Assembly (NCBI GenBank): GCA_046542505.1
Contig: JBKHBH010000001.1
Coordinates: 770-64,769, forward strand
Origin: Thermovirgaceae bacterium
GTDB taxonomy: Bacteria; Synergistota; Synergistia; Synergistales; Thermovirgaceae
Direction of reading: 5' to 3'
DNA: 64,000 bases
Numbering within the stretch: the stretch's first letter is position 1; every line of letters starts with the position of its first letter. Below the pieces are notes generated by a model. The model did no database searches. It saw only the letters and a list, made by a program, of their open reading frames with translations, and was not told the origin of the DNA. The position numbers and the translations under genes are program-made. Below are positions 531 to 16,445 of the stretch, piece by piece.

Positions 531-553
531 ACCGGAGGAAAGAGGGAAATACC

Positions 554-600: not shown

Positions 601-604
601 TGCT

Positions 605-1765
605 TCAGAGAGCCTTTTCCTTTTTTTTCACCACAACGCCGCGTTCCTTTAGATCTTCGAGAAGTGTGGCAAGCTGCTCTTCGGTAAAGGTTTTTTCGGG
701 GGGTACCACGCCCCTGAGGGCAAGGTCGCCACGGGCGATCATCCGGCAGGCGCTGGAACAGGGGAATGATGTGGTCTTGCCCATGGACGTAATGCCCTTT
801 TTTTCGTCGAAAAAATCGAGCATTTCGTAGGTAACGCAGGTCTTCCGTCCATCTTTTTCGCCGACCACATCTATCTGCAAAATGGTCAGGTCGGGTTCGC
901 CTTCCTCCAGGGTGATTTTGGGATCAAGGAGTTTCGTCAGGAATCTGGCGGGGCTGACGGAACATCCATTAAAGTCCACGGGCTCGTCGTCGAGGAGGCC
1001 GATCTCCCTCAAAAGGCCGAGCTTGTCGCACCAGCCGGGGTAACGGATGGTCTTTTCGGCGACGAACTGGATTCCGCTATCTTCGAGGGAAAGGGGAAGT
1101 GTGGAAAGACCGTCGGTGTAAAAACACTCGCATTCTCCGAGCGGTTCTGGGAGGGTTATTGTTTCCACTCCCGAAAGTGGTTCGACCTCGGTCAGTTTGC
1201 CATCCTTAATGATGAGGACTTTGCGTTTGCAGGCCTCAATGACGCTGCTGAAACAAAAGACCACCTTGTAATCCAGGGGGGGCTCGGGGTGGACGGGGAG
1301 CCCTCCAACCTTGAATACGGCGCTTTCGGCCTTGTCCATGGATTCGACGGCGTGTCCGACGAGCACGTTGGTCAGGCCGGGTGCCACACCCAGCCCCGGT
1401 ATTACAAGGACGCCCGCTTTCTTCGCCTCATCGTCGAGGGCAAGTCGTTTTTCCGGCTGGACGCCCACAAGGTCGACGGCGTGAGTTCCGGTTTTTATAG
1501 CCGCCTTGACGGCTCCGAGGCTAAAGCGATTGGGAAGGGCGATGGCGGCGATATCCATGTCCTCCATCTCTTTTTTGAGATCGCTTTCATCGGATGCGTC
1601 AATTGTTTTCGTTTTCAGTTTCGCCGAACCGATCCAGTTCTCGCAGTATTTAAGAAGTTTTTCATCCACGTCACCAAGGGTGACTTCACTGAACTCAGGG
1701 CTTTCCACCAAGTCTTTCGCGACGACCCGGCCCATAAGGCCAGCTCCAAGAACCAAAGCTTTCAA
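605..1765 (-). CDS. Saccharopine dehydrogenase-family NAD(P) oxidoreductase, paralog 1 (386 aa)
   Basis: TTG start with GAGGAGG 7 nt upstream. Rossmann N-terminus VLGAGLMGRVVAKDL. PGLGVAPGLTN and IRYPGW motifs are shared with the two plus-strand paralogs. Confidence 0.7.
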   Translation of the reverse strand: MKALVLGAGLMGRVVAKDLVESPEFSEVTLGDVDEKLLKYCENWIGSAKLKTKTIDASDESDLKKEMEDMDIAAIALPNRFSLGAVKAAIKTGTHAVDLVGVQPEKRLALDDEAKKAGVLVIPGLGVAPGLTNVLVGHAVESMDKAESAVFKVGGLPVHPEPPLDYKVVFCFSSVIEACKRKVLIIKDGKLTEVEPLSGVETITLPEPLGECECFYTDGLSTLPLSLEDSGIQFVAEKTIRYPGWCDKLGLLREIGLLDDEPVDFNGCSVSPARFLTKLLDPKITLEEGEPDLTILQIDVVGEKDGRKTCVTYEMLDFFDEKKGITSMGKTTSFPCSSACRMIARGDLALRGVVPPEKTFTEEQLATLLEDLKERGVVVKKKEKAL

Positions 1766-1780
1766 AAGAGCACCTCCTCA

Positions 1781-1816
1781 AAAATGAGGGGGCGGAGGAT
1801 TTCCCCCCCCGCCCCG
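1781..1816 (-). terminator. Possible intrinsic terminator or processing hairpin between the nhaC-like gene and the downstream dehydrogenase
   Basis: On the minus strand, GGGGCGG (1815-1809) pairs with CCGCCCC (1795-1789), followed by CUCAUUUUU. Confidence 0.3.
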
Positions 1817-1823
1817 TGTTGAT

Positions 1824-3374
1824 TTATCCCTGACTGGGTTCCTTGAAAAGGGGCCTTCCTTTTACCAGGGAAATCCCGTAAACAGTTACGATCAAAACGA
1901 CCAGAGTGATTGCCAAAGACACGATTCCCGAAGCGACGAATCCGGCGACGAGGTAGCCGATGGTTGCCGCAAAGGCCGCTGTCATGGCATAGGGAAGCTG
2001 GGTGTTGACGTGATCAATGTGGTCACAGCTTGACCCAATGGACGAAAGAATGGTTGTATCCGAGATTGGCGAGCAATGGTCGCCGAAGAGGCCTCCGCTC
2101 AGAACGGCACCGATGGCGGGGAAGATGGACAGGTCCATTGCAAGTGCCAGGGGTATGGCGATGGGCATGAAGATGGCGAAGGTTCCCCAGGACGTTCCTG
2201 TGGAGAAGGCCGTGAAGGCGGCGGGTATGAAAATGAGCGCATAGATGAGCGTCGGATTGACCAGTTTCTGGGCTACTGAGACGACGAAGGGTGCCGTTCC
2301 GACGTCGCTGCAGACACTGCCGATGGACCAGGCCAGGACAAGAATCGTCAGGGCTTCGACCATTCCGCGAACACCCTCAAGCCAGGTGAGAAAACCGTCG
2401 CCGAAATTGAAGACCTTTGTCTGGATGGACATTATGAGTGCGACGACGCCTGCAGCAAAGAAGGCCATGATGAGTGACGGCATGGTGCTCGAGTTCCTGA
2501 TGGCCTCAAAGAAGGTCCGTTCGGGGTAGTTCCCGGTCCACAGGAACATGGCGAAAAGGGTAATGAGCAATGCTGCGATAGGCAGAATCATGGACCAGAT
2601 TGTGGGCCTGGCCTCTTTGGGCATTTCTGTCGTGACATCCTCGCGCATGGGTCGGGCGTCGTCTCCGAGGAGTTTGCCTTCGTTAAAGGCTCTTTCCTCA
2701 GCGGCTTTCATCGGTCCGAATTCCAGGTTGGTAACGGCGATGATGAGAACCATGAGGATGGCAGCAATGGTGTAAAACTGGAACGGCACAGCTTCCATAA
2801 ATGCCCCGATAACGTTGTCCTGGATTCCTGCGTTTTCGAACTCCGTCTTCAACAGGCCCATGACGTAGGCGCCCCATGCCGTGATCGGAAGAAGCAGAGG
2901 AACCGCTGCACTGGTAGAGTCCGTGATGTAAGCCAGTTTTTCCCTCGATACTCGAACCCTGTCGGTGATCGGTTTGAAGACCGGACCGACTACGACGGGG
3001 TTTGTGGAATCACTGAAAAAGACGCCGAGGCCGCCGAGCCACGTAACGATCTGCGCACTCCTGCGGCTTTTGACGTATTTCCGCATCGATTCCGCAAAGG
3101 CGTGGGCCCCGCCGCCACGCTCGAGGAGCATGGCAAAGCCGCCGACCATGATGGTCATGAGAAGCACCGATGCGTTCCATGAATTAGCCATACTGCCAAG
3201 AATGAATTCGCGGAAGGTATCGACGATGCCAACTACCGGGTTCCATCCGGCGAGCATTGTAGCCCCGATCCAGACGCCGACAAAAAGACTGAGAATAGTC
3301 TGTTTGGTCCACATTGCCAGTGCGATGGCGAGAACCGGAGGCAACAATGAAAGAACTCCCATGGTTTCTTCCAT
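1824..3374 (-). CDS. NhaC-family Na+/H+ antiporter-like membrane transporter (516 aa)
   Basis: Polytopic hydrophobic protein. The N-terminal LLPPVLAIALAMWTK and SDSTNPVVVGPV / ITDSTSAAV segments are typical of the NhaC family. ATG at 3374. Confidence 0.7.
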   Translation of the reverse strand: MEETMGVLSLLPPVLAIALAMWTKQTILSLFVGVWIGATMLAGWNPVVGIVDTFREFILGSMANSWNASVLLMTIMVGGFAMLLERGGGAHAFAESMRKYVKSRRSAQIVTWLGGLGVFFSDSTNPVVVGPVFKPITDRVRVSREKLAYITDSTSAAVPLLLPITAWGAYVMGLLKTEFENAGIQDNVIGAFMEAVPFQFYTIAAILMVLIIAVTNLEFGPMKAAEERAFNEGKLLGDDARPMREDVTTEMPKEARPTIWSMILPIAALLITLFAMFLWTGNYPERTFFEAIRNSSTMPSLIMAFFAAGVVALIMSIQTKVFNFGDGFLTWLEGVRGMVEALTILVLAWSIGSVCSDVGTAPFVVSVAQKLVNPTLIYALIFIPAAFTAFSTGTSWGTFAIFMPIAIPLALAMDLSIFPAIGAVLSGGLFGDHCSPISDTTILSSIGSSCDHIDHVNTQLPYAMTAAFAATIGYLVAGFVASGIVSLAITLVVLIVTVYGISLVKGRPLFKEPSQG

Positions 3375-3490
3375 ACGATACTACACCTCTTTTCTGTGGT
3401 TTCTTTCTCTCCCGAAACAAATTCCGCCGCTTGGAATGATGTTTCCCGATGAATCCCTCCCTTCGTGATAAAGTCATAAAAACAAAAGAC

Positions 3491-3515
3491 ATTTGTCAAC
3501 AAAATAATGACAAAT
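3491..3515. promoter_or_regulatory. Inverted repeat ATTTGTCA-N9-TGACAAAT in the divergent control region (candidate GntR-type operator)
   Basis: Perfect 8-bp arms at 3491-3498 and 3508-3515. It is nested in a larger imperfect palindrome (AAAAACAAAAG 3478-3488 / CTTTTGTTTTT 3532-3542), in an AT-rich 330-bp gap between divergent operons. Confidence 0.4.
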
Positions 3516-3557
3516 TACAAAAAAGAAATGACTTTTGTTTTTAACGAAAAATACTTG

Positions 3558-3585
3558 TTGCACATAAACGATAATCGTTTATACT
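3558..3585 (+). promoter_or_regulatory. Candidate sigma70-type promoter TTGCAC-16 nt-TATACT whose spacer is filled by a perfect 19-bp palindrome ATAAACGATAATCGTTTAT (3564-3582)
   Basis: Hexamers and spacing read directly. The palindrome has 9-bp arms around A3573. It lies about 120 nt upstream of the first plus-strand gene. Confidence 0.45.
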
Positions 3586-3701
3586 TCACTCCCAGAAGTC
3601 ATACCATTGAAGCTGCATACTGTCAATATCAAAGCAGCGTAATGAAATACATATGCAGTGAAGGGATCCAATGGATGGTCAAATACAAGCGAGGTGGGAG
3701 A

Positions 3702-4430
3702 ATGACTAATTCGTCTGATGCACGCATTGCCATACTCTGCTGGGAGGAAGGACATGTCCCGAAGGGGCTTGTCCAGCTCGAGAGCCTGGTGGGAAACAGC
3801 ACGAATCTCGATTCTTACCCCTTCCCGGTCCGGCTCTGCAGGATCAGGGGAGCCAATCTACAGACGGTTCTGGAAAGCCCGAGCCGCGAAGTGCTCCAGA
3901 GAATGATCGAGACGTCACAGGAACTGGTATCCGAAGGAATCCAGGCAATCACCACGAGCTGCGGGTTCAATGCCGTGTTTCAGCGGGAGCTTGCGGAAGC
4001 CGTCGACGTTCCCGTTTTCACGTCCAGCCTCCTTCAGATCCCCTTCGTGACGAACCTGCTTGCCCCCGAAAAGGCGATCTCCGTCATAACAGCCAAAAAG
4101 ACATCCCTGAAAAAAGAACATTTCGAGGCGGCGGGTATCATGCCCACCATGAACGTCGAGGTTTTCGGTATGGAAGAGTCCCCCGAGTGGAACAAGATAT
4201 TCACTGCTCCCGACGAACCCATCGATCTCGGTATCGTGGAGAAAGATGTCGTTGAAACAGCTCGTTCCGCCGTCAAAAAACGTCCCGATACGGGTGCCGT
4301 CGTCCTCGAATGCACGGACCTGCCGCCCTTCGCCCAGGCCATCCGGGATACAACGGGGCTTCCCGTCTTTGATTTCGTCACCATGATGGGATTTGTCGCC
4401 AGATCTCTGGGCATAGTGTCAGCTTACTGA
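3702..4430 (+). CDS. Asp/Glu/hydantoin-racemase superfamily protein (242 aa) with both catalytic-type cysteines
   Basis: ATG 3702 is preceded by GAGGTGGGAG, and the longer ORF from 3507 runs through AT-rich promoter DNA. Motifs AITTSCGFNA and VVLECTDLPPFA resemble the two Cys motifs (xCNTA / GCTELP) of the family. Confidence 0.55.
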   Translation: MTNSSDARIAILCWEEGHVPKGLVQLESLVGNSTNLDSYPFPVRLCRIRGANLQTVLESPSREVLQRMIETSQELVSEGIQAITTSCGFNAVFQRELAEAVDVPVFTSSLLQIPFVTNLLAPEKAISVITAKKTSLKKEHFEAAGIMPTMNVEVFGMEESPEWNKIFTAPDEPIDLGIVEKDVVETARSAVKKRPDTGAVVLECTDLPPFAQAIRDTTGLPVFDFVTMMGFVARSLGIVSAY

Positions 4431-4471
4431 CGGCAGAAGCGAAAAGACAGATTGCAAAGGAGCGGATAAAA

Positions 4472-5794
4472 ATGAAAACTGTTCTCATACTTGGAGCAGG
4501 CCGGGTGTCTGGCCCCTGTATCGAGTACCTCGTGAGAAAAGGCGGCTGCAAAACCATCGTGGCCGATATCTCGACTGAAAACCTCGCCGAAACGGCGAAA
4601 TTCTTTCCCTCGGTGGAAACTGTGGAATCCGATGTGGTGACAGAAGCGGGAAGCTTGATGGACCGGTTTTCCCCCGATCTTGTGATCAACCTGATGCCGC
4701 CCTTTCTAATGGCTCCTGTGGCAAGGCTTTGTCTTGACAAGGGGATCCACCTGGTACACCCCGCCTATCTCGATGAAGAGACCCGGGCCATGGATGAGGA
4801 ATGCCGCGAGGCGGGACTGGTTTTCGTCACGGAGCTGGGGCTCGACCCCGGGATCGATCATATGTCTGCGGTGAGCACCATCAATGAGATCCATAACGAG
4901 GGCGGAAAGGTAGAGTCCTTCAGTTCGGTCTGCGGGGCACTGCCTGCAGCGGATGCCAATACGAATCCCTGGGGCTATAAGTTGTCATGGTCGCCGTCGA
5001 GTCTGATCGGCGCCAGCAAACGGACGGCGCGTATTCTGCAGGACGGAAGGGAAATCCTCTGGCCCGACGGTGAAACCTATGAACACGTCAGGTTTTATGA
5101 AATCCCGCGCCTGGGAACTTTCGAGATCTACGCCAATGCCGATTCCATTCCTTACCGGGAATTCTACGAGATCCCCGAAGCGAAGGATATCTACCGGGGA
5201 ACCATCAGATATCCCGGATGGTGCGAGACCATATGCCACCTGAACGCCATGGGGTTTTTCGAGGAAGATGCAAAGGACCTCACGGGGCTCACCTTCAGTC
5301 AGTTCACGGCCCAACAGGCGGGAGCCGAAAAAAGCGCGGATCCGAAAAAAGCTGTCTGCGATTTTCTCGGATGCAGGGAATGGGCAACGGTAATCCTCCG
5401 CATGGAATGGCTCGGGTTCTTTGACGACCGATCCCTGCCTTTCGAAAAGGGATCCCCGAGAGACGTCATCTCGGCGCTTTTTTCCGAAAAACTTGTCTAC
5501 CAACCTGGCGAGAAGGACCTCGTGATCCTTCGCGACGAGGTGACCGCCTCCTATCCGGACGGAACGAAAAAGCGCCATTCCTCGACCCTCGTCGATTACG
5601 GCATCCCCGATTCATGGTCCTCGATAGCGAGAACCACCGGGATCCCGCCGGCCATCGCCGCCCGCTTCATTCTCAAAGGCAGGATTCTGACGCCGGGCGT
5701 TCATATCCCGGTCCTGCCCGAAATCTACGAGCCCCTTCTCGAGGAGCTCAGGGGCGAAAATATCAGCATGCAGGAAGAAGTTATTTCCCTTTAA
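4472..5794 (+). CDS. Saccharopine dehydrogenase/reductase (LYS9-like) family oxidoreductase, paralog 2 (440 aa)
   Basis: ILGAGRVSGPCIEYL Rossmann motif. GLDPGIDHMSA, NPWGYKLSWSP and GTIRYPGW closely resemble saccharopine reductase motifs. Confidence 0.75.
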   Translation: MKTVLILGAGRVSGPCIEYLVRKGGCKTIVADISTENLAETAKFFPSVETVESDVVTEAGSLMDRFSPDLVINLMPPFLMAPVARLCLDKGIHLVHPAYLDEETRAMDEECREAGLVFVTELGLDPGIDHMSAVSTINEIHNEGGKVESFSSVCGALPAADANTNPWGYKLSWSPSSLIGASKRTARILQDGREILWPDGETYEHVRFYEIPRLGTFEIYANADSIPYREFYEIPEAKDIYRGTIRYPGWCETICHLNAMGFFEEDAKDLTGLTFSQFTAQQAGAEKSADPKKAVCDFLGCREWATVILRMEWLGFFDDRSLPFEKGSPRDVISALFSEKLVYQPGEKDLVILRDEVTASYPDGTKKRHSSTLVDYGIPDSWSSIARTTGIPPAIAARFILKGRILTPGVHIPVLPEIYEPLLEELRGENISMQEEVISL

Positions 5795-5797
5795 GGG

Positions 5798-7105: not shown

Positions 7106-7109
7106 TCTA

Positions 7110-7811
7110 ATGGAAACACTCAGTGAAAGCAAACCAATGAAGCGAAGACTGCTCAGTGACGATGTAGTCGAGCATCTCATCGATGAGATCCTTGGAGGGG
7201 GCCTCAAACCCGGGGACAGGGTGGTGGAGCTCCGCCTGGCCAAGAGTATGGGCGTGAGCCAGAGTACCGTCCGGGAAGCGATGAGGGAGCTCGAAGTCAG
7301 GGGATACCTGTATTCTCTTCCTTTCAAAGGGGCCTTCGTGAGAGAGTTCAATCTGGAAGGACTGGCGGATTATTTCAGGACCAGGACGGAACTGGAAATG
7401 ATCGCCGCCGGGTGGGCCTGCGAGCAGGAATACGCCGGAGTGGACTGGGAAGCCATGAAGACATGCCTTGAGGAGATGGCAAAGGCTACAGCTTCCGGGG
7501 ACCATATCACCCTCAGGAAGGCGGACATGCGGTTTCACAGGGCCATTGTCGAAGGTGCAGGGAGCCAGTCACTGCTGGCGGCATGGAATGCCCTGAGTCA
7601 CAGGTTCTGGGGATATTACGGCATGCACATGGAACAGAAGATTGCGAGGTTCAAGATCCAGGAGAGCCTGCACAGGCAGATTTTCACCCTCTACAGGCAA
7701 GGAAGGCTCGAGGAGCTCCGGCAGCAACTTCTGGATCACTATATAGACGTGAATACCGCTCAAAAGCTGGACCACAGGACAAAGGCGGATTCAGGTGAGG
7801 AGATGAAATGA
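7110..7811 (+). CDS. GntR/FadR-family transcriptional regulator (233 aa)
   Basis: N-terminal wHTH LRLAKSMGVSQSTVREAMRELEVRGYL with an all-helical FCD-like C-terminus. Its stop overlaps the next start (ATGA at 7808-7811). Confidence 0.8.
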   Translation: METLSESKPMKRRLLSDDVVEHLIDEILGGGLKPGDRVVELRLAKSMGVSQSTVREAMRELEVRGYLYSLPFKGAFVREFNLEGLADYFRTRTELEMIAAGWACEQEYAGVDWEAMKTCLEEMAKATASGDHITLRKADMRFHRAIVEGAGSQSLLAAWNALSHRFWGYYGMHMEQKIARFKIQESLHRQIFTLYRQGRLEELRQQLLDHYIDVNTAQKLDHRTKADSGEEMK

Positions 7812-9091
7812 TGTATTTCGGGAAAAAAAGATTCGAAATCAGCCGGATAGAAGCACGGGAAATCCTGGATTGCCGATTCAACCCGACCGTCCAGGTTGAC
7901 GTCTGGGTCAATGAGGAACATTTCGGCAGGGCCGATGTTCCGGCCGGGAGGTCCCGGGGCGAGCGTGAGGCCTGGGAGCTCAGAGACGGCGATGAAGCCG
8001 TCTTCGGCGGGCTTGGAGTCTTGCAGGCCGTGAAGAACATCAGGGAAGGGATTGCCCCGGCGCTCAGAGGCATGGATGTCCGGGACCAGAGGTTGATCGA
8101 CCTGTCAATGATCGACCTTGACGGCACGGCAAACAAGAAGAACCTGGGCGGAAACGCCATCATCGGCGTGTCCCTGGCCTGCGCCAGGGCGGCGGCCGCA
8201 GCCTGCGGCCTTCCCCTTTACAGGTATATCGGGGGCAACGCCCATGTATTGCCCGTCCCCCTGCTCAACTACATCAACGGCGGTCGCCTCACGTCGAATG
8301 ACCTGGATTTCCAGGAAATCTGCATCTTTCCGGTGGGTGCGGAAACCTTCCGGGAGGCCATGATCATCGGCTGGGATGTCTACAACGAACTTCGGGAGAT
8401 TCTTGCCTCGAAATATGGCAAGATTGCCGTCAACGTTGGTGACGAAGGGGGATTTGCGCCACCCATTGTCAGCATCCGAGAGGCCATGGATCATCTCGTC
8501 AAGTCCGTCGAACAGGCGGGGCATGCGGAAAAGGTGGTTTACGGTTTCGACTGCGCCGCAAGCCATTTCTTTGACGCCGGGAAAAAGAAATACAGGCTCG
8601 AGGGCAAGGATCTCACCAGCGAAGAGCTTTTGACTTTCTACAAGGATCTGATCGCCCGGTACCCGATCGCCACCATGGAAGATCCCTTTGATGAAGACGA
8701 CGTGGAGGGCTTCCGGATGGCCACGGAACAGCTGGGTATCCAGATCGTCGGTGATGATTTCCTCTGCACCAACCCCAGGCTCATCAAGGAGAGATCCCAC
8801 GCCTGCAATGCCCTGCTTTTTAAATTCAACCAGGTCGGGACGCTTTCAGAGGCTTTCGATGCGGCCGAGAGCGCATACCGTCATGGTTTCGGGATCATGG
8901 TGTCGGAACGTTCCGGCGAGACGGAAGACCCCTTCCTGGCGGATGTCTCCGTGGGACTGAACACCGGGCAGATCAAGACGGGCGCGACCCGTTCCGAACG
9001 GACGGTGAAATACAACCGGCTGCTTGAGATCGAGGCGGAACTCGGCAAAGCGGCCCTTTATGCGGGAAACTTCTACAGGAATCCTTTCTAG
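7808..9091 (+). CDS. Enolase-family protein, divergent paralog (427 aa)
   Basis: Enolase motifs GDEGGFAP, MEDPFDEDD, VGDDFLCTNP, FKFNQVGT, SGETED and GQIKTG are present. Two canonical His positions are replaced (NGGRLTSN, VSERSGETED). Confidence 0.8.
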   Translation: MMYFGKKRFEISRIEAREILDCRFNPTVQVDVWVNEEHFGRADVPAGRSRGEREAWELRDGDEAVFGGLGVLQAVKNIREGIAPALRGMDVRDQRLIDLSMIDLDGTANKKNLGGNAIIGVSLACARAAAAACGLPLYRYIGGNAHVLPVPLLNYINGGRLTSNDLDFQEICIFPVGAETFREAMIIGWDVYNELREILASKYGKIAVNVGDEGGFAPPIVSIREAMDHLVKSVEQAGHAEKVVYGFDCAASHFFDAGKKKYRLEGKDLTSEELLTFYKDLIARYPIATMEDPFDEDDVEGFRMATEQLGIQIVGDDFLCTNPRLIKERSHACNALLFKFNQVGTLSEAFDAAESAYRHGFGIMVSERSGETEDPFLADVSVGLNTGQIKTGATRSERTVKYNRLLEIEAELGKAALYAGNFYRNPF

Positions 9092-9149
9092 GTCGAAAGG
9101 CGGCTTGACGCATCGGGGAGGAGCATGAAACCCGGGAGGATGCGTTTTT

Positions 9150-10523
9150 GTGAGGCTGATCAGGGTGAACTATTTCAGAAATCTACACCAACTTACGCAA
9201 CACGGAAACGACGCTCTTCGCAGGGAAACGCTGGACATACTCAATTTTGCCCTCGCAAAGGCGGATCCTTTTGTCGCCGCAAGGAACTGTGTGGTCATGG
9301 AGGGCGAGGAGCTCTCCATTTGCGGCAGAACAATGGATCTGTCCCGGTTCGATAAGGTTTACGTCATCGGGGCGGGCAAGGCAAGCTTCGGGATCGCCCG
9401 GGCCCTCGAGGAAGTTTTGGGGCCGCGGATAACGAAAGGCCTTGTCATTTGCAAGGACGGGCTTCAAGAGCGACTCGAGCATGTTGAGATCGCCTGCGCC
9501 AGTCATCCTGTTCCCAACGAGACGAGTTTGCGCAAGGCCGGGGAAATTCTGGATCTGATGCGGCAGACCGGGCCCAGGGACCTTGTGATCGCATGCATAA
9601 CGGGAGGGAGTTCTGCGTTGATGTCCCTTCCCGTCCCGGAGATTCCCTTCGAGGACAAGCGGACGCTCAACCGTATTCTGCTGACCAGCGGTGCGAACAT
9701 TCTCGAGATCAACGCCGTGAGAAAACATGCAAGCCTCGTCAAGGGCGGAAGGCTCGCTCAGGCAATGCATCCCGGGACCCTTTTGATTAACTTGACCGTT
9801 TCAGATGTCATCGGCGATCCTCTCGACTGCATCACCGATCCTACCGTCCCTGATTCCACATCCTTCGAGGATGCCCGCAGGACCCTTGACAAGTACGGTC
9901 TCTGGGAGCGGGTGCCGGAAACGGTAGCGAAATATTTCAGGGATCCTCCGCCGGACCGGGAAACGCCGAAGTCCTTCGATGACCGGGTCTTCGAGAGCTT
10001 TATCATTGTTCCCGGCGAGGCCGCAAGCGAGGGCGCTGCTGAAAGGGCAAGGGAGCTAGGATACGAAACCATGATCCTCTCCACCATGTTCGAAGGCGAA
10101 AGCCGGGAACTGGGGTGCACCTTCGGGTATATCGCGAAAGAGATCATCCGCAAGGAGAGACCGCTGAAACGGCCCTGTGCCGTCATCGGCGGCGGAGAGA
10201 CGGTGGTGACCTTCGAGAGCGAGAATGAGGGCCTGGGGGGGCCGAACCAGGAGTTTGCCCTGGGTGCTGCTACGGAAATATCAAGGATCGGTGATGTGGT
10301 CGTCGCCGGACTGGATACCGATGGGACCGACGGACCGACGAACTTCGGAGGAGGAATCGTCGACAACTGCACCGTGGACCGGGCCGAGGTGCTGGGCCTG
10401 GATATCCACACTGCCTTGAAACGGCATGAGGTGTCCGGGCTGCTGGGAGAGCTCGGCGATCTTCTTATTACCGGGAACACCGGGACCAACGTGAACGACC
10501 TCAAGGTAATGATCCTGCGCTAG
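9150..10523 (+). CDS. Glycerate 2-kinase (DUF4147 + MOFRL, TtuD/GckA-type; 457 aa)
   Basis: GTG start with GGGAGGA 10 nt upstream. VYVIGAGKAS, ITGGSSAL, VRKHAS.VKGG, IGGGETVV and DTDGTDGP motifs are typical of the family. Confidence 0.75.
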   Translation: MRLIRVNYFRNLHQLTQHGNDALRRETLDILNFALAKADPFVAARNCVVMEGEELSICGRTMDLSRFDKVYVIGAGKASFGIARALEEVLGPRITKGLVICKDGLQERLEHVEIACASHPVPNETSLRKAGEILDLMRQTGPRDLVIACITGGSSALMSLPVPEIPFEDKRTLNRILLTSGANILEINAVRKHASLVKGGRLAQAMHPGTLLINLTVSDVIGDPLDCITDPTVPDSTSFEDARRTLDKYGLWERVPETVAKYFRDPPPDRETPKSFDDRVFESFIIVPGEAASEGAAERARELGYETMILSTMFEGESRELGCTFGYIAKEIIRKERPLKRPCAVIGGGETVVTFESENEGLGGPNQEFALGAATEISRIGDVVVAGLDTDGTDGPTNFGGGIVDNCTVDRAEVLGLDIHTALKRHEVSGLLGELGDLLITGNTGTNVNDLKVMILR

Positions 10524-10607
10524 CGTTTTTGCAACCGGTGGGACAATGCCGGGCAGACGAGCATGAGGCGGCCTCATGGGAAACGTTGAGGAAAGGGGAT
10601 TTCGGAT

Positions 10608-11852
10608 ATGTCTGACGGAAAGGTTCTGTTGTTGGGTTGCGGCATGCAGGGCAAGGCGGCCCTTTATGACCTCCTCGGGAGTGATGGGGTGACCAAAATT
10701 GTCGTCGCCGACGCTTCTTCGAAATTGCAGGAAGATGTCGCCAGGCTTCAGTCGAATAAGGTGGAGGCCGTGAAACTTGATGCGGACAACTGCACTCAGG
10801 TGAAGGAATTGATGGCCGAAGCCGATGTGGTGGTGGAACTCCTTCCGGGATCTTTCGCCTTCGGAATGGCCGAGTTGGCCGTCGAGGTGGGTGTCGACCT
10901 GATCACGTCCATGTACCTGGTCAACCCTGGAGAACAGGATGCCGCCAAAGCAGAAAAACAGAGGAAAGCGCTCTCGGCCTTGTCGGACCAGGCCAGGCAA
11001 AAAGGCGTGACCATCCTCCAGGAATTCGGGATGGATCCGGGCGTGGATCTCGTTTTGGGAAAAAGGGCCCTTGAAGAGCTGGACGAAGTCAAGGCCTTTC
11101 ATTCCTATGGTGCAGGATTCCCCGAACTCTCCGCTGCAGATAACCCGCTGAGGTACAAATTCACCTGGTCGATCATAGGCGTGATGAAATCCTATCTACG
11201 GCCGGCAAAAATACTGGACGAAAACCGTGTCGTCGAGATCCCGGCCGATGAGATGTTTGCACCGAAAAACACACACCTTCTGGATCTGGCGGAAATGGGA
11301 AGCCCCCTGGAATGTTTTCCCAATGGCGACGCCCTCGCCTTTGCCGAGGTATTTGGTCTGGGTGAAGCCGTAGAATCCATGGGGCGATATATCTGCCGGT
11401 GGCCGGGACACGGATCGTTCTGGTGGAAGATGGCAAAATCAGGGTTTTTGAGGGCTGAGCCGGTCTCGATGAACGGTGCCGGGGATGTGGCGCCCGTGGA
11501 ATTCTGTGCCTCCCTCCTGGCCTCGCAGGATCAGTTCTATTACAGGGAGGACGAACGAGACGTCGCCCTGGTCCGCTCCGATGTGCGGGGCACCCGGGAT
11601 GGAAAACCCGTCCGCGTCGTCTGGCAGATAACGGATTACAGGGACTTGGCCACGGGATTTACGGCCATGCAGAGAACTGTCGGTTTCCCCATGTCCATCG
11701 GAGCGCAAATGATCATGGATGGAACCATCGACAAAAAGGGTGTCATCCACCCCATGGAAGTGCCCTTTGATCCCTTCATGAAAGAGCTCGGCAACAGAGG
11801 CATCCAGGCGGTTCGTTTCGAAGAAGAATGGGATGGTGACCTGAAGCCATGA
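10608..11852 (+). CDS. Saccharopine dehydrogenase-family oxidoreductase, paralog 3 (414 aa)
   Basis: LLGCGMQGKAALYDL Rossmann motif; GMDPGVDLV, NPLRYKFTWS and RWPGH motifs are parallel to paralog 2. Confidence 0.7.
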   Translation: MSDGKVLLLGCGMQGKAALYDLLGSDGVTKIVVADASSKLQEDVARLQSNKVEAVKLDADNCTQVKELMAEADVVVELLPGSFAFGMAELAVEVGVDLITSMYLVNPGEQDAAKAEKQRKALSALSDQARQKGVTILQEFGMDPGVDLVLGKRALEELDEVKAFHSYGAGFPELSAADNPLRYKFTWSIIGVMKSYLRPAKILDENRVVEIPADEMFAPKNTHLLDLAEMGSPLECFPNGDALAFAEVFGLGEAVESMGRYICRWPGHGSFWWKMAKSGFLRAEPVSMNGAGDVAPVEFCASLLASQDQFYYREDERDVALVRSDVRGTRDGKPVRVVWQITDYRDLATGFTAMQRTVGFPMSIGAQMIMDGTIDKKGVIHPMEVPFDPFMKELGNRGIQAVRFEEEWDGDLKP

Positions 11853-12781
11853 AGTTGCCCTTTGTCAAGGGGCACATGGGCGGGAACAGGATCCTGCTCT
11901 TGCCCGGGATCGACGGGACGGACCAGGAACTCCTGGATACGGGACTGAAGCTGCTTGACCATCTGTACCTGTGCGGCCACCAGGCCGGCTTCCTGTATGG
12001 AGGCCCGGATAACGGGGCTTTTCGGGTGCGCATTGTCGGCTATACGGCGAGGGATTTTCTTCCCGCCTGCGGAGGCCTGACACAGGTGCTTGGAGCCGCC
12101 GTCGGGGAAGGATACCTGGAAAGCGTATTGGGGCTACCTTCTGCCGAACGGGACGAGATACTCCTTGAGACCGACGGCGGGCCGGTCCCGATCCACATCG
12201 AAAACGGCCCCGCCGGAACATCCCGCGTCTTTACGGACATGACGGGTTTTGCCGAAGAATGTATGAGGCAGGGAGTGGAAAGGTTTTTCCTCGACGGAGT
12301 CGAGGCCCTCCGGTCGGGTGCCTTCCTCGTGGTCGATGCGAAAAAGGCGGCACTCAAGGGCGGCCCGGGGGATTTCGTCACTCTCGATGCAGAAGCCCGC
12401 GAGGTGCTGATAAGCCTTCAAAAGCGATTCAGAAATGTTTGTAACACGAACTCAAGGAACTTTGCCCTTTACGACCACGGGCCTTCGGGCGACGGCCCCA
12501 CCCGGGCGGTGTTCCCGCACGGAATCGAAGGAGGCCACATCGAACCCGCCTGTGGAACCGGCTCGGTCGCGTTGGCCCTCGGCCTTCTGGAAACAGGGGA
12601 ATTGTCGGGTCAGGTTCGTGATGGGACGATTACGACTGATCTCGAGACCGGGGGAGGACCGTGCCTGGGCGGTGACGAGAAAACCCGTGTGGACTTCGAA
12701 TACAGCGGTGGAACGCTGAAGAGGGCAAGGTTTTCTCATAGCAGGGTGGAGATTCTGGCGACGGGGGAAGTCAGCATATAA
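11849..12781 (+). CDS. DapF-fold-like two-cysteine racemase/epimerase candidate, paralog A (310 aa)
   Basis: ATGA overlap with the upstream gene. The N-terminus MKLPFVKGHMGGNRILLL resembles DapF MxFxKMHGLGNDFVVV. Cys74 in ACGGLTQVLG and a second Cys in IEPACGTGS are reminiscent of the DapF catalytic Cys pair. Confidence 0.5.
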   Translation: MKLPFVKGHMGGNRILLLPGIDGTDQELLDTGLKLLDHLYLCGHQAGFLYGGPDNGAFRVRIVGYTARDFLPACGGLTQVLGAAVGEGYLESVLGLPSAERDEILLETDGGPVPIHIENGPAGTSRVFTDMTGFAEECMRQGVERFFLDGVEALRSGAFLVVDAKKAALKGGPGDFVTLDAEAREVLISLQKRFRNVCNTNSRNFALYDHGPSGDGPTRAVFPHGIEGGHIEPACGTGSVALALGLLETGELSGQVRDGTITTDLETGGGPCLGGDEKTRVDFEYSGGTLKRARFSHSRVEILATGEVSI

Positions 12782-12873
12782 CCCCTTTGACCGGCCCGGC
12801 CTGCTGCGATGAGCATCGTCGCGCCGGGAAAGAATGTTCCCCGAAGGGGAAGGGCTAGAGGAGGCGAATCGAA

Positions 12874-13896
12874 ATGGCTTCATTGAAGGACAGTCCGCAG
12901 TATTATCACCGTGTGCTGGAACGAATTCCTCCGAGACCGACGCCGGCATTTTCGGAGGAAGGCATGCAGGAGCGCGTCTGGGGGCGCAGGTGGGGCGTTA
13001 AAAACGATGTGGGCACACTCAGGATGGTCATGCTCCACCGACCCGGCGAAGAGATCAACGTGATGAAAACCGGTGGCAAATATGACCCCGAAATCGAGGC
13101 TATCATCGACGAGGATGAGCAGTGGTATTTCAGATCCGACACGCCGCCGAGCCTGGAGAAGATGCAGGCGGAACACGACGCCTTTGCCAACCTCCTGCGT
13201 TCTGAAGGGATCGAAGTGGTCTACATGGATGGGGGATCGAAAGACCCCAACGCCATGTTCACCAGGGATATGGGGATGGTCGTTGATGGAGGGGTGATTA
13301 TCTCGCGGATGGGCCCGGTGGGTAAGCCTTACGGCACGGGACGCCGCGGCGAAGAGCTCTATCTCACCCGCAAGGTTGCAGAACTCGGGATGCCCATTTA
13401 CCGGACCATCGCCGGCGAGGGGCTGATGGAGGGAGGTAGTTTCTGCCTACTCGATGAAAAACATGCCGCCATCGGCATGAGTTTCCGTGGCAACGAGAGC
13501 GGGGCGGACCAGGTTGAAGAAATTTTGAAGCTTCTTGGCATCGAACTGATCCGGGTTCCCCTCCCGGGATTTGCCATGCACCTGGACGGTGGCATCGTCA
13601 TGGTGGACCACGACAAGGCGGTCGTTAACGTGGAACGGCTCCCGTACTGGTTTATCGATCGCCTGAAGGAGCTTGGTATCGAGATGATCTTTGCCGATTA
13701 CCGTGACGTGGCCTACTCGGTGAACGTTCTGACCATCCGTCCCGGGGTGGTTGTCATGGATGAGCGGGGCAAGTGGACCCGCGAGAGCCTCGAAAAACGG
13801 GGCGTGACCGTTCATCCCGTCTGTTGGGAAGAATGCACGAAGCATGGAGGTGGCGTCCACTGTTCCTCTTTGCCGCTGGTTCGTGAAAAGGACTGA
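12874..13896 (+). CDS. Guanidino-group-modifying (arginine deiminase / amidinotransferase fold) enzyme, short form (340 aa)
   Basis: AGAGGAGG RBS. Motifs LHRPGEE, EHDAFANLLRSEGIEV, MFTRD, EGGSF, AMHLDG and the C-terminal GGGVHCSSLPL (catalytic Cys) fit the ADI/DDAH/amidinotransferase pattern. Confidence 0.6.
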   Translation: MASLKDSPQYYHRVLERIPPRPTPAFSEEGMQERVWGRRWGVKNDVGTLRMVMLHRPGEEINVMKTGGKYDPEIEAIIDEDEQWYFRSDTPPSLEKMQAEHDAFANLLRSEGIEVVYMDGGSKDPNAMFTRDMGMVVDGGVIISRMGPVGKPYGTGRRGEELYLTRKVAELGMPIYRTIAGEGLMEGGSFCLLDEKHAAIGMSFRGNESGADQVEEILKLLGIELIRVPLPGFAMHLDGGIVMVDHDKAVVNVERLPYWFIDRLKELGIEMIFADYRDVAYSVNVLTIRPGVVVMDERGKWTRESLEKRGVTVHPVCWEECTKHGGGVHCSSLPLVREKD

Positions 13897-13996
13897 AAAT
13901 GGCGAGGGGATTTACTGTCGAAAAGGATAGCCGGGTGCAGGCGTCTGGATCATCCGGCATCGGCAAAGGAGTGAATCTGGCGAGGAGATTTTCTGA

Positions 13997-15148
13997 TTGA
14001 AGCGGATTTACCGCCTTCTCCTGAAGTTGATAACGGCCAATTTCGGCATCATGTGCTTTGGCGACATCTACTTTCTTGTCGCCTTGTACATGGAGAGCTA
14101 CGGAATCGATGACCCCGAGACGATCGGGTGGATCCTGTCGGCATACTTTGCCGCATCGGCGTTGTCCCGCCCCTTCGTGGGATGGGTGGTGGAAAAGTTC
14201 TCCTTCAAGCCGGTGCTCATCGTGGCTTCTGTGTCCTGTGTGGCCAGCGGGGTGGGCGTGGCCCTTTCGGGGTCGTCGGTTCCTCTCATTCTCTTTTTCC
14301 GGGCCGTGGCGGGCCTCTCATCGAGCCTTTTCCTGGTGGCCATAACGACCTACCAGACCCTTGCGGTTCCGGAAGAAGTCAGGGGCTCATCCTTCACTCT
14401 TGTGACGGCGGGTACCATCGCGCCCCTGGTCACGGTGGTGCCGCTTGCGGAATGGCTTTTGCGTGCGGGAAAGCCGGGGCTGTATATCTGGTTTCCAGTC
14501 CTGCCGGCCTTTCTGTGTCTTTTCGCATCCATGTCGCTTCGGCCTTCCGACGGCGTGGTCACCGAAAGCCGTGACTGGGGATCGTACCGCGAGGTTTTTA
14601 CCCATCCAGCACTCAGGATCCTTTTCCCCTCTGTGATCTGTTTTGCCATGACCGATGCCGCCATCGTCTCTTTTGCGGGTCTCGCGCTCGAGAAAAAGCT
14701 GGTGGCATCGGCCTTCATCTCTTCCCAGGCCTTTACAGCCGTTTTGATACGAGTCTTCGGTTTCCGCCTCATGGACATCATGCCCCGAAGCCGGCTGGCG
14801 GCCTTGTCCTTTCTTGTGACCGGCGGGAGCCTCTTTGCGGCGACCTTTACAGAGAGCAACACGGGCTTCATGGCGCTGGGGATCATTTATGGAGTCGCCA
14901 TGGGATACGGATTCCCCCTGCACCTTTCCCTCATTGGCGACGCCGTGTCCGAAAGGCTGCGGCCAAAGGCCACGGCCATGGTCTGGTTCCTCATGTCGGG
15001 CTGTTTTTTCATCTCTCCCGTCATCACGGGGTACCTGGCGAGGCGTTTCACCTTCGCCGTCGCCTACAGGATCATCATGGGCTGCATTATTATTGTGACT
15101 CCCCTGATTCACAGGCGGTTCACGAGATCTTTCAAAAGCGACAGCTGA
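13997..15148 (+). CDS. MFS-type transporter (383 aa)
   Basis: About 11-12 hydrophobic segments; TTG start after GGCGAGGAG. The start is uncertain (alternative ATG at 14051). Confidence 0.6.
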   Translation: MKRIYRLLLKLITANFGIMCFGDIYFLVALYMESYGIDDPETIGWILSAYFAASALSRPFVGWVVEKFSFKPVLIVASVSCVASGVGVALSGSSVPLILFFRAVAGLSSSLFLVAITTYQTLAVPEEVRGSSFTLVTAGTIAPLVTVVPLAEWLLRAGKPGLYIWFPVLPAFLCLFASMSLRPSDGVVTESRDWGSYREVFTHPALRILFPSVICFAMTDAAIVSFAGLALEKKLVASAFISSQAFTAVLIRVFGFRLMDIMPRSRLAALSFLVTGGSLFAATFTESNTGFMALGIIYGVAMGYGFPLHLSLIGDAVSERLRPKATAMVWFLMSGCFFISPVITGYLARRFTFAVAYRIIMGCIIIVTPLIHRRFTRSFKSDS

Positions 15149-15197
15149 TTCTTCCGGGGTTTGAGTAGTTGCCGTGTGAGGGAGGGGGAGATTGATC

Positions 15198-16145
15198 ATG
15201 AGACTGGATTTCATCAAGGGACATATGGGAGGAAATACCATTGTCATTCTGAACGGGGCGCAGGTGCCGCTGGAGAGAACTCTTGACCTTTCGCTGAAAG
15301 TTCTCGGGGGAAAATACCTGTATTCCCACGAAGCGGGGATCATATCTCCCGGGGGCGAGGATGTGGATCTTGATGTTCGCATCGTCGGCCGTGCTTCCGG
15401 AAAATTTCTGACGGCCTGCGGGGGTCTGACCCAGGTCCTGGGGAAGGCCCTGAGTCGTACGGAACGGGCAAGAAGATTCGGTCTCGATTTGCAAAGGCGG
15501 AAAACCGTCATGTTGGGGACTCCGGGCTGCGTGACCCCCATTCGGGTTTTTCCCGAAAGAGAGGCCTTTACCACGGAAACCGACATGACAAAGTTCGTCG
15601 AAGAAATTTACGGACTCGGTCTCGAGCCCCTGATTCTTTCGGGAATCAGCGCCTGGAAGATCGGGAAATTTCTTGTCATTCATTCCGACGAACTCCGCAA
15701 GGCGTTGCCCGGTGCCGATGTAGAAAGCATTGACGACCTTTCGAAAAAAAAGATCGTCCAGATGCAGCAGGAGTTTGTCTCCACGTTCAGCGATGCCGCT
15801 TGTGACGTTGCTCTTTACGACGATCACGCCGTCGGCATGCAGAAAGGTTTCCGCGTCCTTTTCCCACATTCCATTCCCGAGGGGCTGATCGAGCCGTCCT
15901 GTGGAACCGGGTCCATTGCCGTCTGTGTTGCCGCCCTGTACGAGCAACAGGGTTCAAGGGCCGTTTCGGCCGCTCCGGAATCCGGGATGGCTGTGACTTT
16001 CGACATGGAATCAGGAGGGGACGTGTCCCTGGGAGGGCCTGACATCAGCCGGGTCGAGATGATCCTCAGAAACGGAGCCATCACAAAAGCGACGTTTTCC
16101 CACAGCAACGTAGAAGTTACCTGTGAGGGGCACCTGTATCTATAG
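15198..16145 (+). CDS. DapF-fold-like two-cysteine racemase/epimerase candidate, paralog B (315 aa)
   Basis: ATG 15198 lies 7 nt after GGAGGGGGAG (the track ORF starts at TTG 15192). It shares FIKGHMGGN, VRIVG, FLTACGGLTQVLG, TDMTKF, FPH, IEPSCGTGS and FSHSNVE blocks with paralog A. Confidence 0.5.
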   Translation: MRLDFIKGHMGGNTIVILNGAQVPLERTLDLSLKVLGGKYLYSHEAGIISPGGEDVDLDVRIVGRASGKFLTACGGLTQVLGKALSRTERARRFGLDLQRRKTVMLGTPGCVTPIRVFPEREAFTTETDMTKFVEEIYGLGLEPLILSGISAWKIGKFLVIHSDELRKALPGADVESIDDLSKKKIVQMQQEFVSTFSDAACDVALYDDHAVGMQKGFRVLFPHSIPEGLIEPSCGTGSIAVCVAALYEQQGSRAVSAAPESGMAVTFDMESGGDVSLGGPDISRVEMILRNGAITKATFSHSNVEVTCEGHLYL

Positions 16146-16170
16146 ACGCGAGAAGCATACAAAAGTTGAG

Positions 16171-16372: not shown

Positions 16373-16445
16373 CAAATTGCCCTTGACAGGAGAGCAAGGG
16401 CCGGATAAAATTCCATCAATTCGGAAAGCGGAGGACAGGTTCAGG

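Follow-up and report, generated by a model that had tools for sequence, protein, structure and literature searches.

Judged by its gene order and content, the thirteen-gene island at positions 605-16145 of a 64,000-nt stretch of Thermovirgaceae DNA (assembly GCA_046542505.1, contig JBKHBH010000001.1; hereafter the window) is made up of two cassettes that are each conserved on their own and were fused in this lineage; it is not one conserved pathway locus. Cassette A combines saccharopine-dehydrogenase (SDH) paralogues with cofactor-independent racemase-type genes, whereas cassette B consists of a LarA-type racemase, a GntR regulator, a variant enolase and a MOFRL kinase. The island probably encodes an undescribed breakdown route. 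All thirteen open reading frames (ORFs) were found where the preliminary description had placed them (about 15.5 kb; ORF list with Pfam and NCBIfam scans), and the two model collections back most of its family labels. The genes are as follows.

605..1765, minus strand: SDH1, NAD(P) oxidoreductase, 386 aa (PF03435+PF16653; best PDB match 3abi, 164 bits end to end)
1824..3374, minus strand: NhaC-family membrane carrier, 516 aa (PF03553, 208 bits; weak similarity to the ArcD arginine/ornithine antiporter model)
3702..4430, plus strand: AGrac, two-Cys Asp/Glu/hydantoin-racemase-fold protein of the PRK07475 family, 242 aa (hidden Markov model (HMM), motifs and fold)
4472..5794, plus strand: SDH2, LYS9-like (saccharopine-reductase-like), 440 aa (242 bits over the full length against fungal 1e5l and 2axq)
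5798 (or 5825)..7105, plus strand: LarA-type nickel-pincer 2-hydroxy-acid racemase homologue (Lar_N + LarA_C), first gene of the hydroxy-acid cassette
7110..7811, plus strand: GntR/FCD regulator (PF00392+PF07729; 4-nt overlap with the enolase gene)
7808..9091, plus strand: variant enolase, archaeal-type enolase paralogue, 427 aa (TIGR01060 eno equivalog, 503 bits against a cut-off of 300)
9150..10523, plus strand: DUF4147+MOFRL kinase, glycerate-2-kinase-like, 457 aa (Pfam, 229 and 95 bits)
10608..11852, plus strand: SDH3, partner of the DapF-like protein, 414 aa (Pfam; 124 bits to saccharopine reductase, weaker than SDH2)
11849..12781, plus strand: DapF-like A, DapF/proline-racemase-fold two-Cys protein, 310 aa (fold and invariant Cys)
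12874..13896, plus strand: guanidino-group-modifying hydrolase of the arginine deiminase (ADI)/DDAH fold, 340 aa (PF02274, 103 bits)
13997..15148, plus strand: MFS transporter, 383 aa (PF07690)
15192..16145, plus strand: DapF-like B, paralogue of A, 317 aa (37% identity to A, E 1e-58)

The gene order that the preliminary description had treated as one unit is not conserved as a whole beyond the lineage, whereas each sub-cassette is conserved elsewhere. Cassette B occurs in other phyla without SDH or racemase genes and the SDH/racemase cassette occurs without cassette B. The full fusion was observed only in the lineage of the window and in a Logan contig of about 96% nucleotide identity. In this relative, the eight genes compared are all intact with dN/dS values of 0.07-0.37, which indicates purifying selection. 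The array is thus not a chance arrangement, given its gene-for-gene conservation in the relative and the recurrence of both sub-cassettes. Cassette B of the window lacks the usual transporter and dehydrogenase, and its junctions to the neighbouring genes measure 4 nt to 84 nt.

Cassette A was traced by a scan of a genome collection anchored on the DapF-like protein, of which the best 80 of 125 loci were used; this set leaves out cultured Synergistes and Cloacibacillus species. About twelve Synergistales/Synergistaceae loci among these 80 show the order (GntR)-SDH3-DapF-like-NhaC (or DUF819)-AGrac-SDH2, with 50-61% identity to SDH3, AGrac and SDH2 of the window. In Synergistales cassettes, the gene that directly precedes the DapF-like gene is 57-60% identical to SDH3, and in most of them SDH2 comes right after AGrac; their NhaC proteins are 33-37% identical to that of the window. 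Enolase and kinase genes are absent from all of these roughly twelve loci. A permuted cassette was found in Acetomicrobium hydrogeniformans, and only a minimal GntR-SDH3-NhaC-AGrac set in Thermovirga lienii DSM 17291 (locus L088, 11131-13645), where it is followed by a ZnuA/ABC/ABC-3 metal-uptake operon amid cobalamin genes, an adjacency seen in this one genome only. The SDH/DapF-like adjacency itself occurs in at least three clades of the DapF-like tree. The coupling of SDH-family enzymes with both cofactor-independent racemase families, first remarked on in the window, recurs in the twelve or so Synergistales genomes and also at loci of Aerophobetes, Acetothermia and Bathyarchaeia. Additional genes were found in some cassettes: an M19 dipeptidase lies within that of L003, a different LarA-like gene and a TAXI-TRAP system are joined to that of L071, and Octopine_DH-family genes occur near the SDH cassette of L090 as well as near a LarA-enolase pair of the variant type in L133.

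Elsewhere, about twelve loci (Bacillota, Syntrophomonadaceae, Bipolaricaulota and a Desulfovibrio metagenome-assembled genome) have ADI/DDAH-like neighbours of the DapF-like gene, while in Thermovirgaceae it lies beside genuine DapF genes, aminotransferases and M20 peptidases. In some 25-30 Syntrophomonadaceae/Bacillota loci (L014-L075), it is part of a strongly conserved, housekeeping-like block whose neighbours were labelled by eye as NagB-like, SerA-like, a small Cys-rich protein, sigma/anti-sigma, threonine synthase, phosphoglycerate-mutase-like and aconitase. This raises the question of whether the DapF-like protein of that block serves as a diaminopimelate (DAP) epimerase or another essential epimerase.

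Homologues of AGrac (34-41% identity) were also found on 163 plasmids, mostly of Rhizobiaceae and roseobacters. Six of the seven plasmid contexts that were read contain an amino-acid ABC or TAXI-TRAP transporter together with an FAD-dependent amine oxidoreductase; the set in A. fabrum is Lrp-regulated. On A. tumefaciens pAt1, the genes after AGrac encode a trio with the OdhB-C-A architecture of flavin opine and D-hydroxyproline dehydrogenases (PMC4575208), namely an FAD protein of 385 aa, a 2Fe-2S protein of 99 aa and an NAD(P)/FAD protein of 473 aa, and then a GntR regulator. A Rhizobium homologue of SDH3 lies beside Lrp and a polar amino-acid ABC transporter. Since these AGrac contexts belong to plasmids of aerobic alphaproteobacteria, the theme of racemase, C-N oxidoreductase and transporter spans aerobes and anaerobes, and by analogy the anaerobic cassette A looks like a pyridine-nucleotide-linked counterpart of the flavoprotein theme in aerobes.

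The closest homologues of the variant enolase (60-82% identity) come from Desulfovibrio, Atribacteria, Deltaproteobacteria, Gelria, Syntrophomonadaceae and Bacillota. Gene arrangements around members of its subfamily are as follows.

L132: TRAP(DctMPQ)-LarA-GntR-enolase-MOFRL kinase-2-hydroxy-acid dehydrogenase
L134/L135 (Atribacteria): TRAP-LarA-enolase-MOFRL kinase-GntR-2-hydroxy-acid dehydrogenase
L133 (Gelria): LarA-enolase-TRAP-Octopine_DH-hydantoinase A/B
L139, 6992-9722 (Paraburkholderia caribensis plasmid): GntR-enolase-DUF4147 kinase
L140, 6989-14400 (Salmonella enterica serovar India plasmid): enolase-MFS-DUF4147 kinase-Ddl-like ligase-GntR-pyruvate kinase-GNAT

LarA, GntR, the variant enolase and the kinase of the window are collinear with L132, at 51, 52, 79 and 59% identity respectively. 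Of the six lineages examined, which range from Atribacteria to the Salmonella and Paraburkholderia plasmids, five have a MOFRL kinase gene next to that of the variant enolase; the kinase of L132, L134, L139 and L140 is 47-59% identical to that of the window, and LarA of L132-L135 is 44-51% identical. The 2-hydroxy-acid dehydrogenase of L132 is nearest to glyoxylate/hydroxypyruvate reductases and phosphoglycerate dehydrogenase. Complete E. coli genomes contained no counterpart of the Salmonella enolase-kinase cassette. When metagenomes were scanned with LarA of the window as anchor, only relatives of 30-44% identity came up, none of them with an enolase, kinase or SDH neighbour, and the scan is therefore uninformative on the cassette.

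Its conserved substitutions mark the variant enolase as a distinct, new paralogue subfamily. Membership of the enolases is clear from the Mg ligands (S39, D246, E295, D320) and the acid/base residues (K345, E211, E168, K396), all of which are conserved, and Arg374 and Ser375 are retained as well (the full retained set being Ser39, Glu168, Glu211, Asp246, Glu295, Asp320, Lys345, Arg374, Ser375 and Lys396). The best PDB match is M. jannaschii enolase at 479 bits, with bacterial enolases at about 350-410 bits. The canonical 2-phosphoglycerate active site is not preserved in that His159 and His373 are both replaced. In yeast numbering, which was assigned by mapping onto the yeast enolase sequence with all twelve canonical residues falling into place, the window protein has Glu for His373, Leu for His159, Arg for Ala38 and Arg for Ser158. 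The first change (motif SERSGETED) is present in 118 of the 120 closest homologues and the second (NGGxLTSN) in 85 of the 120, His being retained in Gelria; replacement of Ala38 by Arg/Lys, Ser158 by Lys/Arg and Ser13 by Cys also characterizes the subfamily, and the enolases of L139 and L140 share H159L, H373E and A38R. All members encountered are annotated as 'phosphopyruvate hydratase'. A housekeeping-enolase role was rejected because the same subfamily occurs as an extra copy on the Salmonella and Paraburkholderia plasmids.

The preliminary description had let glycerate kinase and enolase lead to phosphoenolpyruvate (PEP), a proposal that stands in part. The pyruvate kinase in one cassette and the hydroxypyruvate-reductase-like gene in another argue for PEP as the product and for a glycerate-type substrate, but the active site of the enolase is a variant one, and the conserved substitutions may leave room for another 2-phospho-3-substituted acid as substrate.

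The LarA protein belongs to an unassigned subgroup of the LarA family, with its best PDB match in 9eid (220 bits). It carries the motifs GVHR, EPHxFAGFSGGRK and NH, and the alignment to 9eid and 6d6z shows GVHR, EPHEFAGFSGGRK and ENHNP; we take the motif residues to have the roles given in the LarA literature (catalytic His, Lys binding the nickel-pincer nucleotide and His as Ni ligand). It scored below all curated NCBIfam subgroup cut-offs (343, 298, 281 and 252 bits against 500, 460, 462 and 540), the nearest model being malate racemase LarAH6 (343 bits, cut-off 500). The GntR protein is 52% identical to that of L132 and only 25-31% to the GntR proteins of SDH cassettes, and on this comparison the sole GntR of the island is assigned to the hydroxy-acid cassette. 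The MOFRL kinase reached 227 and 151 bits with the glycerate 2-kinase equivalog models, for which the cut-offs are 550 and 670. The locus is also present in GCA_964438225.1 (L091), where the kinase (10140-11135) is called with 331 aa (99% identity); with an intact 457-aa ORF in the window and in the relative L131, the short call is probably an assembly or frameshift difference.

Four racemase-type genes of three mechanistic classes had been claimed for the island, and motifs and folds uphold AGrac, LarA and the DapF-like pair A and B as members of these classes. PDB-chain sequence searches with AGrac and both DapF-like proteins returned nothing meaningful, and fold searches were therefore used. 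AGrac is a member of the Asp/Glu/hydantoin racemase family according to HMM scores (PRK07475, 254 bits with a cut-off of 231; PF01177, 42 bits with a cut-off of 31), its two Cys motifs and its fold. Its homologues are 235-245 aa long, which places the true start at 3702 and not at the long-ORF start at 3507. Both Cys motifs, as first noticed, are present and conserved among 120 homologues: TSCGF in 119, [VI]LECTD in 112 and a Cys in ECTD/ECSE context in 119. The AlphaFold2 model (pLDDT 94.6) matched glutamate (including MurI), aspartate, hydantoin and allantoin racemases in Foldseek at TM 0.55-0.65.

For A and B, the DapF-like label is borne out by the fold and the two Cys but not by a Pfam, NCBIfam or PDB sequence match at normal thresholds. 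DapF-like A had no match to the DapF models PF01678 and TIGR00652, and B reached 12.8 bits where the DapF cut-offs are 34.7 and 114.65. The DapF-like AlphaFold2 model (pLDDT 92.9) has DapF as its best Foldseek match (E 7e-15), and ProR, HypE, DcsC (O-ureidoserine racemase) and HisR are also among the matches (E 1e-11 to 7e-15; 12-18% identity). Cys74 and Cys235 are invariant in an alignment of 42 family members, of which 15 touch the Pro_racemase model PF05544 and seven touch DAP_epimerase. On the strength of the model and the two Cys, both proteins can be placed among the two-base racemases of the DapF/proline-racemase fold superfamily, in which a pseudo-symmetric two-domain fold carries one catalytic Cys per domain. 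Among 1.84 billion representatives, a profile search gave 138 clusters at 50% identity, by which the family appears small and sharply bounded. In a rough tree, DapF-like B groups with SDH3-adjacent copies of Synergistaceae and A with another SDH3-adjacent copy.

The three SDH paralogues, too, are as first described, with PF03435 and PF16653 scoring above the gathering scores at 158/59, 257/61 and 179/72 bits respectively. Their pairwise identity is 22-26%, from which we conclude that they split long ago. The closest solved relative of SDH1, as judged from the sequence match to 3ABI, is an L-lysine 6-dehydrogenase (PMC10413350). Neither LKR/LYS1 nor an aminoadipate-semialdehyde dehydrogenase was found in the island or among the Pfam-scanned ORFs of the window. 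All characterized SDH-family enzymes work on the omega-amine or omega-aldehyde of lysine-like or diamine substrates, and a His-Glu-Glu catalytic triad defines carboxyspermidine dehydrogenase (CASDH) among them (PMC10413350). A carboxy(nor)spermidine dehydrogenase function was rejected for the paralogues of the island as the triad (H[ED][ED]) is absent in all three; they score 19-28 bits with NF043000, for which the cut-off is 800.

The NhaC-family carrier is probably a substrate importer or antiporter, going by its family. The ADI-fold protein has the FTRD, HLDG and C-terminal GGGVHC motifs, and it scored 107 bits with the arcA equivalog (cut-off 489) and 26-55 bits with the DDAH models (cut-offs 300-450). 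An orthologue of 84-85% identity is found in a separate Synergistaceae operon directly downstream of cassette A. In L090 (14276-19981, Synergistaceae) and L003 (14346-17117), this operon consists of a 443-aa SDH_C-only protein, an MBL-fold hydrolase, a DDAH-like protein, the ADI-like protein (85%) and a TRZ/ATZ-type amidohydrolase, and from its gene content looks like an uncharacterized route for a guanidino or amidino compound. This operon beside cassette A, along with the ADI/DDAH-like genes that precede DapF-like genes elsewhere, ties guanidino/amidino chemistry to the same network.

The genes of the island are tightly spaced, with intergenic distances in order of 58, 327, 41, 30, 4, -4, 58, 84, -4, 92, 100 and 49 nt. 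The co-directional spacing of 100 nt or less and the ATGA overlaps at 7808 and 11849 reported earlier were verified, as was the low G+C content of the divergent control region, which is 37% as compared to 56.5% for the island. Two non-coding features were annotated.

3375..3701, no strand: divergent A+T-rich control region (37% GC) with two perfect palindromes as candidate operators
1789..1815, minus strand: G+C-rich hairpin with U run in the gap between the NhaC gene and SDH1 (terminator scan; 11-bp stem; fold -31.5 kcal/mol, z = -2.3)

An inverted-repeat search placed the palindromes at 3491-3515 (ATTTGTCA-N9-TGACAAAT) and 3564-3582 (ATAAACGAT-A-ATCGTTTAT). Neither of them recurs in the 64-kb window and hence no regulon motif can be defined. 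The hairpin is a possible partial terminator or attenuator; because it lies with its U run between the two genes, SDH1 may be partly uncoupled from NhaC. The terminator scan found no strong terminator-like site on the plus strand between 3702 and 16145, which is consistent with co-transcription of the eleven rightward genes. Rfam models gave no riboswitch or leader within 1-20000.

Our reading of the island as an integrated catabolic unit is plausible but tentative. By this reading, a dibasic or N-substituted amino acid would be subjected to stereo-inversion and NAD(P)-linked C-N oxidoreduction, and a glycerate-type arm would leave as PEP. The island would be inducible, would serve an uncultured peptide- and amino-acid-fermenting Thermovirgaceae bacterium, and would have arisen when a hydroxy-acid cassette of wide distribution was inserted into an amino-acid cassette specific to Synergistales. 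The amino-acid part would supply a carrier and two racemase-dehydrogenase pairs, in each of which a C-N oxidoreductase of the NAD(P)-dependent SDH family goes with a two-Cys racemase that needs no cofactor; the ADI/DDAH-fold hydrolase, the MFS carrier, the second DapF-like paralogue and the divergent NhaC-SDH1 pair would have been added to it. The imported amino acid would be dibasic or N-substituted, in the latter case a secondary amine or an opine-like or imino compound. Its stereocentres would be set for the dehydrogenases by AGrac at a centre of acidic, dicarboxylate type and by the DapF/ProR-like proteins at an alpha-amino or imino centre. In the manner of saccharopine reductase and lysine 6-dehydrogenase, the SDH enzymes would then use NAD(P)+ to oxidize the C-N bond at an omega-carbon, and the ADI/DDAH-fold enzyme would hydrolyse a guanidino or ureido group. 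Finally, LarA would racemize a three-carbon glycerate-type 2-hydroxy acid, the MOFRL kinase would phosphorylate O2 and the variant enolase would form PEP with a gain of ATP. The substrate, the order of the reactions and a substrate common to both cassettes, or to all thirteen genes, are what we infer from these data.

Several observations weigh against this integrated reading. Since the cassettes are apart everywhere outside this lineage, they need not share a substrate. The genes larB, larC and larE did not turn up among the Pfam-scanned ORFs of the window. The DapF-like family also occurs in housekeeping-like or lysine-biosynthesis-like contexts. In yeast enolase, His159 touches the substrate phosphate and His373 is near the C3 hydroxyl and its water; mutants at either position have strongly lowered activity, and both residues are absent in the variant enolase. 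The step to PEP may therefore not be a plain enolase reaction. Furthermore, thermodynamics disfavour the oxidation of secondary amines with NAD(P)+, and the SDH enzymes could therefore run reductively.

In the main rival reading, which we regard as somewhat less probable, the island would merely gather two or three unrelated catabolic modules under read-through transcription with no common substrate: LarA, GntR, the variant enolase and the kinase for DL-glycerate, hydroxypyruvate or tartrate, the SDH and racemase genes for an amino acid, and an arginine-type hydrolase with its transporter. Such independence would fit the fact that other phyla conserve each cassette alone, together with a transporter and a regulator of its own, and the only GntR of the window is of the hydroxy-acid type. 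MOFRL kinases act in tartrate and glycerate pathways (ttu operon), which would suit a free-standing hydroxy-acid module. So would the substrates of LarA homologues, since those of the malate-racemase type also epimerize tartrate and others racemize glycerate (PMC11770544). Against this reading, the inserted cassette has lost its TRAP system and dehydrogenase and sits between the halves of the SDH cassette at junctions of 4-84 nt with no terminator. The fused order is moreover kept under purifying selection in the sister lineage, and LarA cassettes with the variant enolase repeatedly adjoin amine- or amide-metabolizing genes elsewhere. Salvage of cell-wall-derived and other D-amino acids appears unlikely. 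It would make AGrac a D-Glu/D-Asp racemase, the DapF-like proteins DAP, lysine or ornithine epimerases, SDH1-3 omega-amine dehydrogenases for L-diamino acids and the ADI-fold protein an enzyme acting on arginine or citrulline. The relation of SDH1 to L-lysine 6-dehydrogenase agrees with it, as do the genuine DapF, aminotransferase and M20 peptidase neighbours in Thermovirgaceae, the M19 dipeptidase of L003, the many Amidohydro_3 and M20 genes of the window and a Bathyarchaeia amidohydrolase beside the DapF-like gene that is D-aminoacylase-like by eye only, with no HMM confirmation. However, the LYS9-like secondary-amine chemistry of SDH2 and the whole hydroxy-acid cassette would be left unexplained, and the island contains no peptidoglycan-peptide hydrolases or Mur/Mpl-type genes.

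The reverse direction, biosynthesis of an opine-type product (a metallophore, redox sink or compatible solute) analogous to staphylopine synthesis by CntK/CntL/CntM, is very improbable. In this scheme a racemase would give the D-amino acid, two reductive condensations by SDH enzymes would build an N-carboxyalkyl chain, and NhaC or the MFS protein would export the product. For SDH-family enzymes, reduction is thermodynamically the better direction, and carboxyspermidine dehydrogenase attaches an aminocarboxypropyl group in a CntL-like manner; the znuABC-type genes after the T. lienii cassette and the Octopine_DH (CntM-family) genes near L090 and L133 point the same way. Nevertheless, catabolic operons are where GntR/FCD regulators and such a variety of importers (TAXI-TRAP, NhaC, DUF819, periplasmic binding proteins) are typically found, no SDH paralogue has the His-Glu-Glu triad of CASDH, Fur/Zur-type regulation is not evident, and the Znu adjacency is confined to one genome. 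A more specific version of the catabolic reading, speculative and quite unlikely, is that the variant enolase is a PEP-forming beta-eliminase on a 2-O-phospho-3-substituted propanoate and that the island degrades stereo-random glycation-type adducts of lysine and arginine. Such adducts could be N-epsilon-carboxyalkyl-lysines, 3-(N-epsilon-lysino)lactate or carboxyalkyl-arginines, and the arm reaching the enolase could be of the phosphorylated isoserine type (3-amino or 3-alkylamino-2-hydroxypropanoate). The SDH enzymes could cleave the epsilon-N secondary amines of lysine and the DDAH/ADI-fold enzyme the substituted guanidines, while the three kinds of racemase could normalize the random stereocentres and LarA, the kinase and the variant enolase could recover the hydroxy-acid arm as PEP. 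A literature search on carboxymethyllysine and Cloacibacillus gave no gene-level link.

The flanks are unrelated to the island, with a serine dehydratase gene upstream and trpEGDC downstream. A promoter-like site with 11 of 12 consensus matches (16383-16411) lies upstream of trpE (16741), and a strong terminator with a 15-bp stem (16634-16669) just before it. The region 16383-16669 thus looks like a transcription-attenuation leader of the trp operon, as judged from these two elements; no Rfam family, T-box or other, matched it. About 10 kb from the island, an ornithine cyclodeaminase/mu-crystallin family gene (25977-27113) and the gene of an RpiR-type regulator come after a 456-aa ORF that matched no Pfam model (24570-25940). 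By its gene content, the region 24570-27113 may be a second amino- or imino-acid module. The regions 35782-51375 and 55778-62269 are rich in amide- and amino-acid-processing genes, with three M20 peptidases, two SHMT and two PALP enzymes, an MBL-fold protein, a DctM TRAP subunit and a LysR regulator, and the window has three Amidohydro_3 paralogues at 38296-39885 (minus strand), 44646-46250 and 49756-51375. Two adjacent ORFs of 443 and 446 aa on the minus strand (39878-41209 and 41272-42612) have no Pfam match. The same holds for an 895-aa ORF on the minus strand (47530-50217), which overlaps plus-strand ORFs including an Amidohydro_3 gene and is probably a spurious antisense ORF of G+C-rich DNA.

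The comparison brings out three conserved elements without a described function, namely the Synergistales SDH/racemase cassette, a DapF/ProR-fold family without a Pfam model and the variant enolase subfamily. The Synergistales cassette would be an anaerobic NAD(P)-linked counterpart of the flavoprotein routes for hydroxyproline, D-amino acids and opines. Identification of the substrates would correct a widespread misannotation and could shed light on the handling of D-configured or N-substituted amino acids by anaerobes that degrade protein. Thermovirga lienii, Acetomicrobium hydrogeniformans and Gelria sp. Kuro-4 are culturable carriers, in addition to the Salmonella and Paraburkholderia plasmids, so these questions are experimentally accessible.

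The view that the island matches no known pathway agrees with our literature search, which found neither cassette described nor a homologous cluster assigned to a characterized pathway; the context table of Desguin et al. 2020 contains no COG0148 enolase or glycerate-kinase association for any LarA group. Partial likenesses to known systems were nevertheless found. As in the hydroxyproline pathway (HypE and D-hydroxyproline dehydrogenase) and dadAX, a two-Cys epimerase of the DapF/ProR fold would precede a stereospecific C-N dehydrogenase, and the hydroxyproline-route genes are likewise clustered with a transporter and a regulator (PMC4575208). The island differs in that its dehydrogenases are NAD(P)-dependent SDH-family proteins and not flavoproteins of the Odh/DAO kind, in having two racemase-dehydrogenase pairs, and in epimerases whose families have no assignment or only a weak relationship to known families. 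Opine catabolism in Agrobacterium, Pseudomonas and Bradyrhizobium (OoxAB, NoxAB, or OdhABC with a permease) shares with our proposal the cleavage of secondary amines in N-carboxyalkyl amino acids, and an AGrac homologue heads an OdhB-C-A-type operon on the A. tumefaciens pAt plasmid. However, the window contains no Oox/Nox/Odh genes or opine ABC permease and does not belong to this group; the hosts of the island are strict anaerobes of non-plant habitats for which no opine substrate is known.

Similarity to the saccharopine pathway and L-lysine 6-dehydrogenase is seen in the scores of SDH2 (242 bits to saccharopine reductases) and SDH1 (164 bits to L-lysine 6-dehydrogenase), but the island lacks an AlaDH-type LYS1/LKR partner and an aminoadipate-semialdehyde dehydrogenase, and its paralogues are paired with racemases. 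Staphylopine synthesis (the DapF-fold histidine racemase CntK and the opine dehydrogenase CntM) resembles the island in combining a DapF-fold racemase, an NAD(P)H dehydrogenase and a transporter, whereas the island has no CntL-type nicotianamine synthase, an SDH family in place of Octopine_DH and a regulator of catabolic type. On the hydroxy-acid side, the ttu operon (the MOFRL glycerate 2-kinase TtuD and the pyruvate kinase TtuE) similarly leads from a MOFRL kinase through lower-glycolysis steps to PEP/pyruvate, and in the systems of the LarA malate/tartrate or glycerate racemases a LarA homologue likewise normalizes hydroxy-acid stereochemistry, with a GntR or LysR regulator. Unlike these, cassette B has its own enolase paralogue with an altered site, no tartrate dehydrogenase and a LarA below the subgroup cut-offs. 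The logic of an epimerase followed by a C-N dehydrogenase, and that of a hydroxy acid converted by way of a 2-phospho acid to PEP, has precedents, while none is known for the enzyme subfamilies and their combination.

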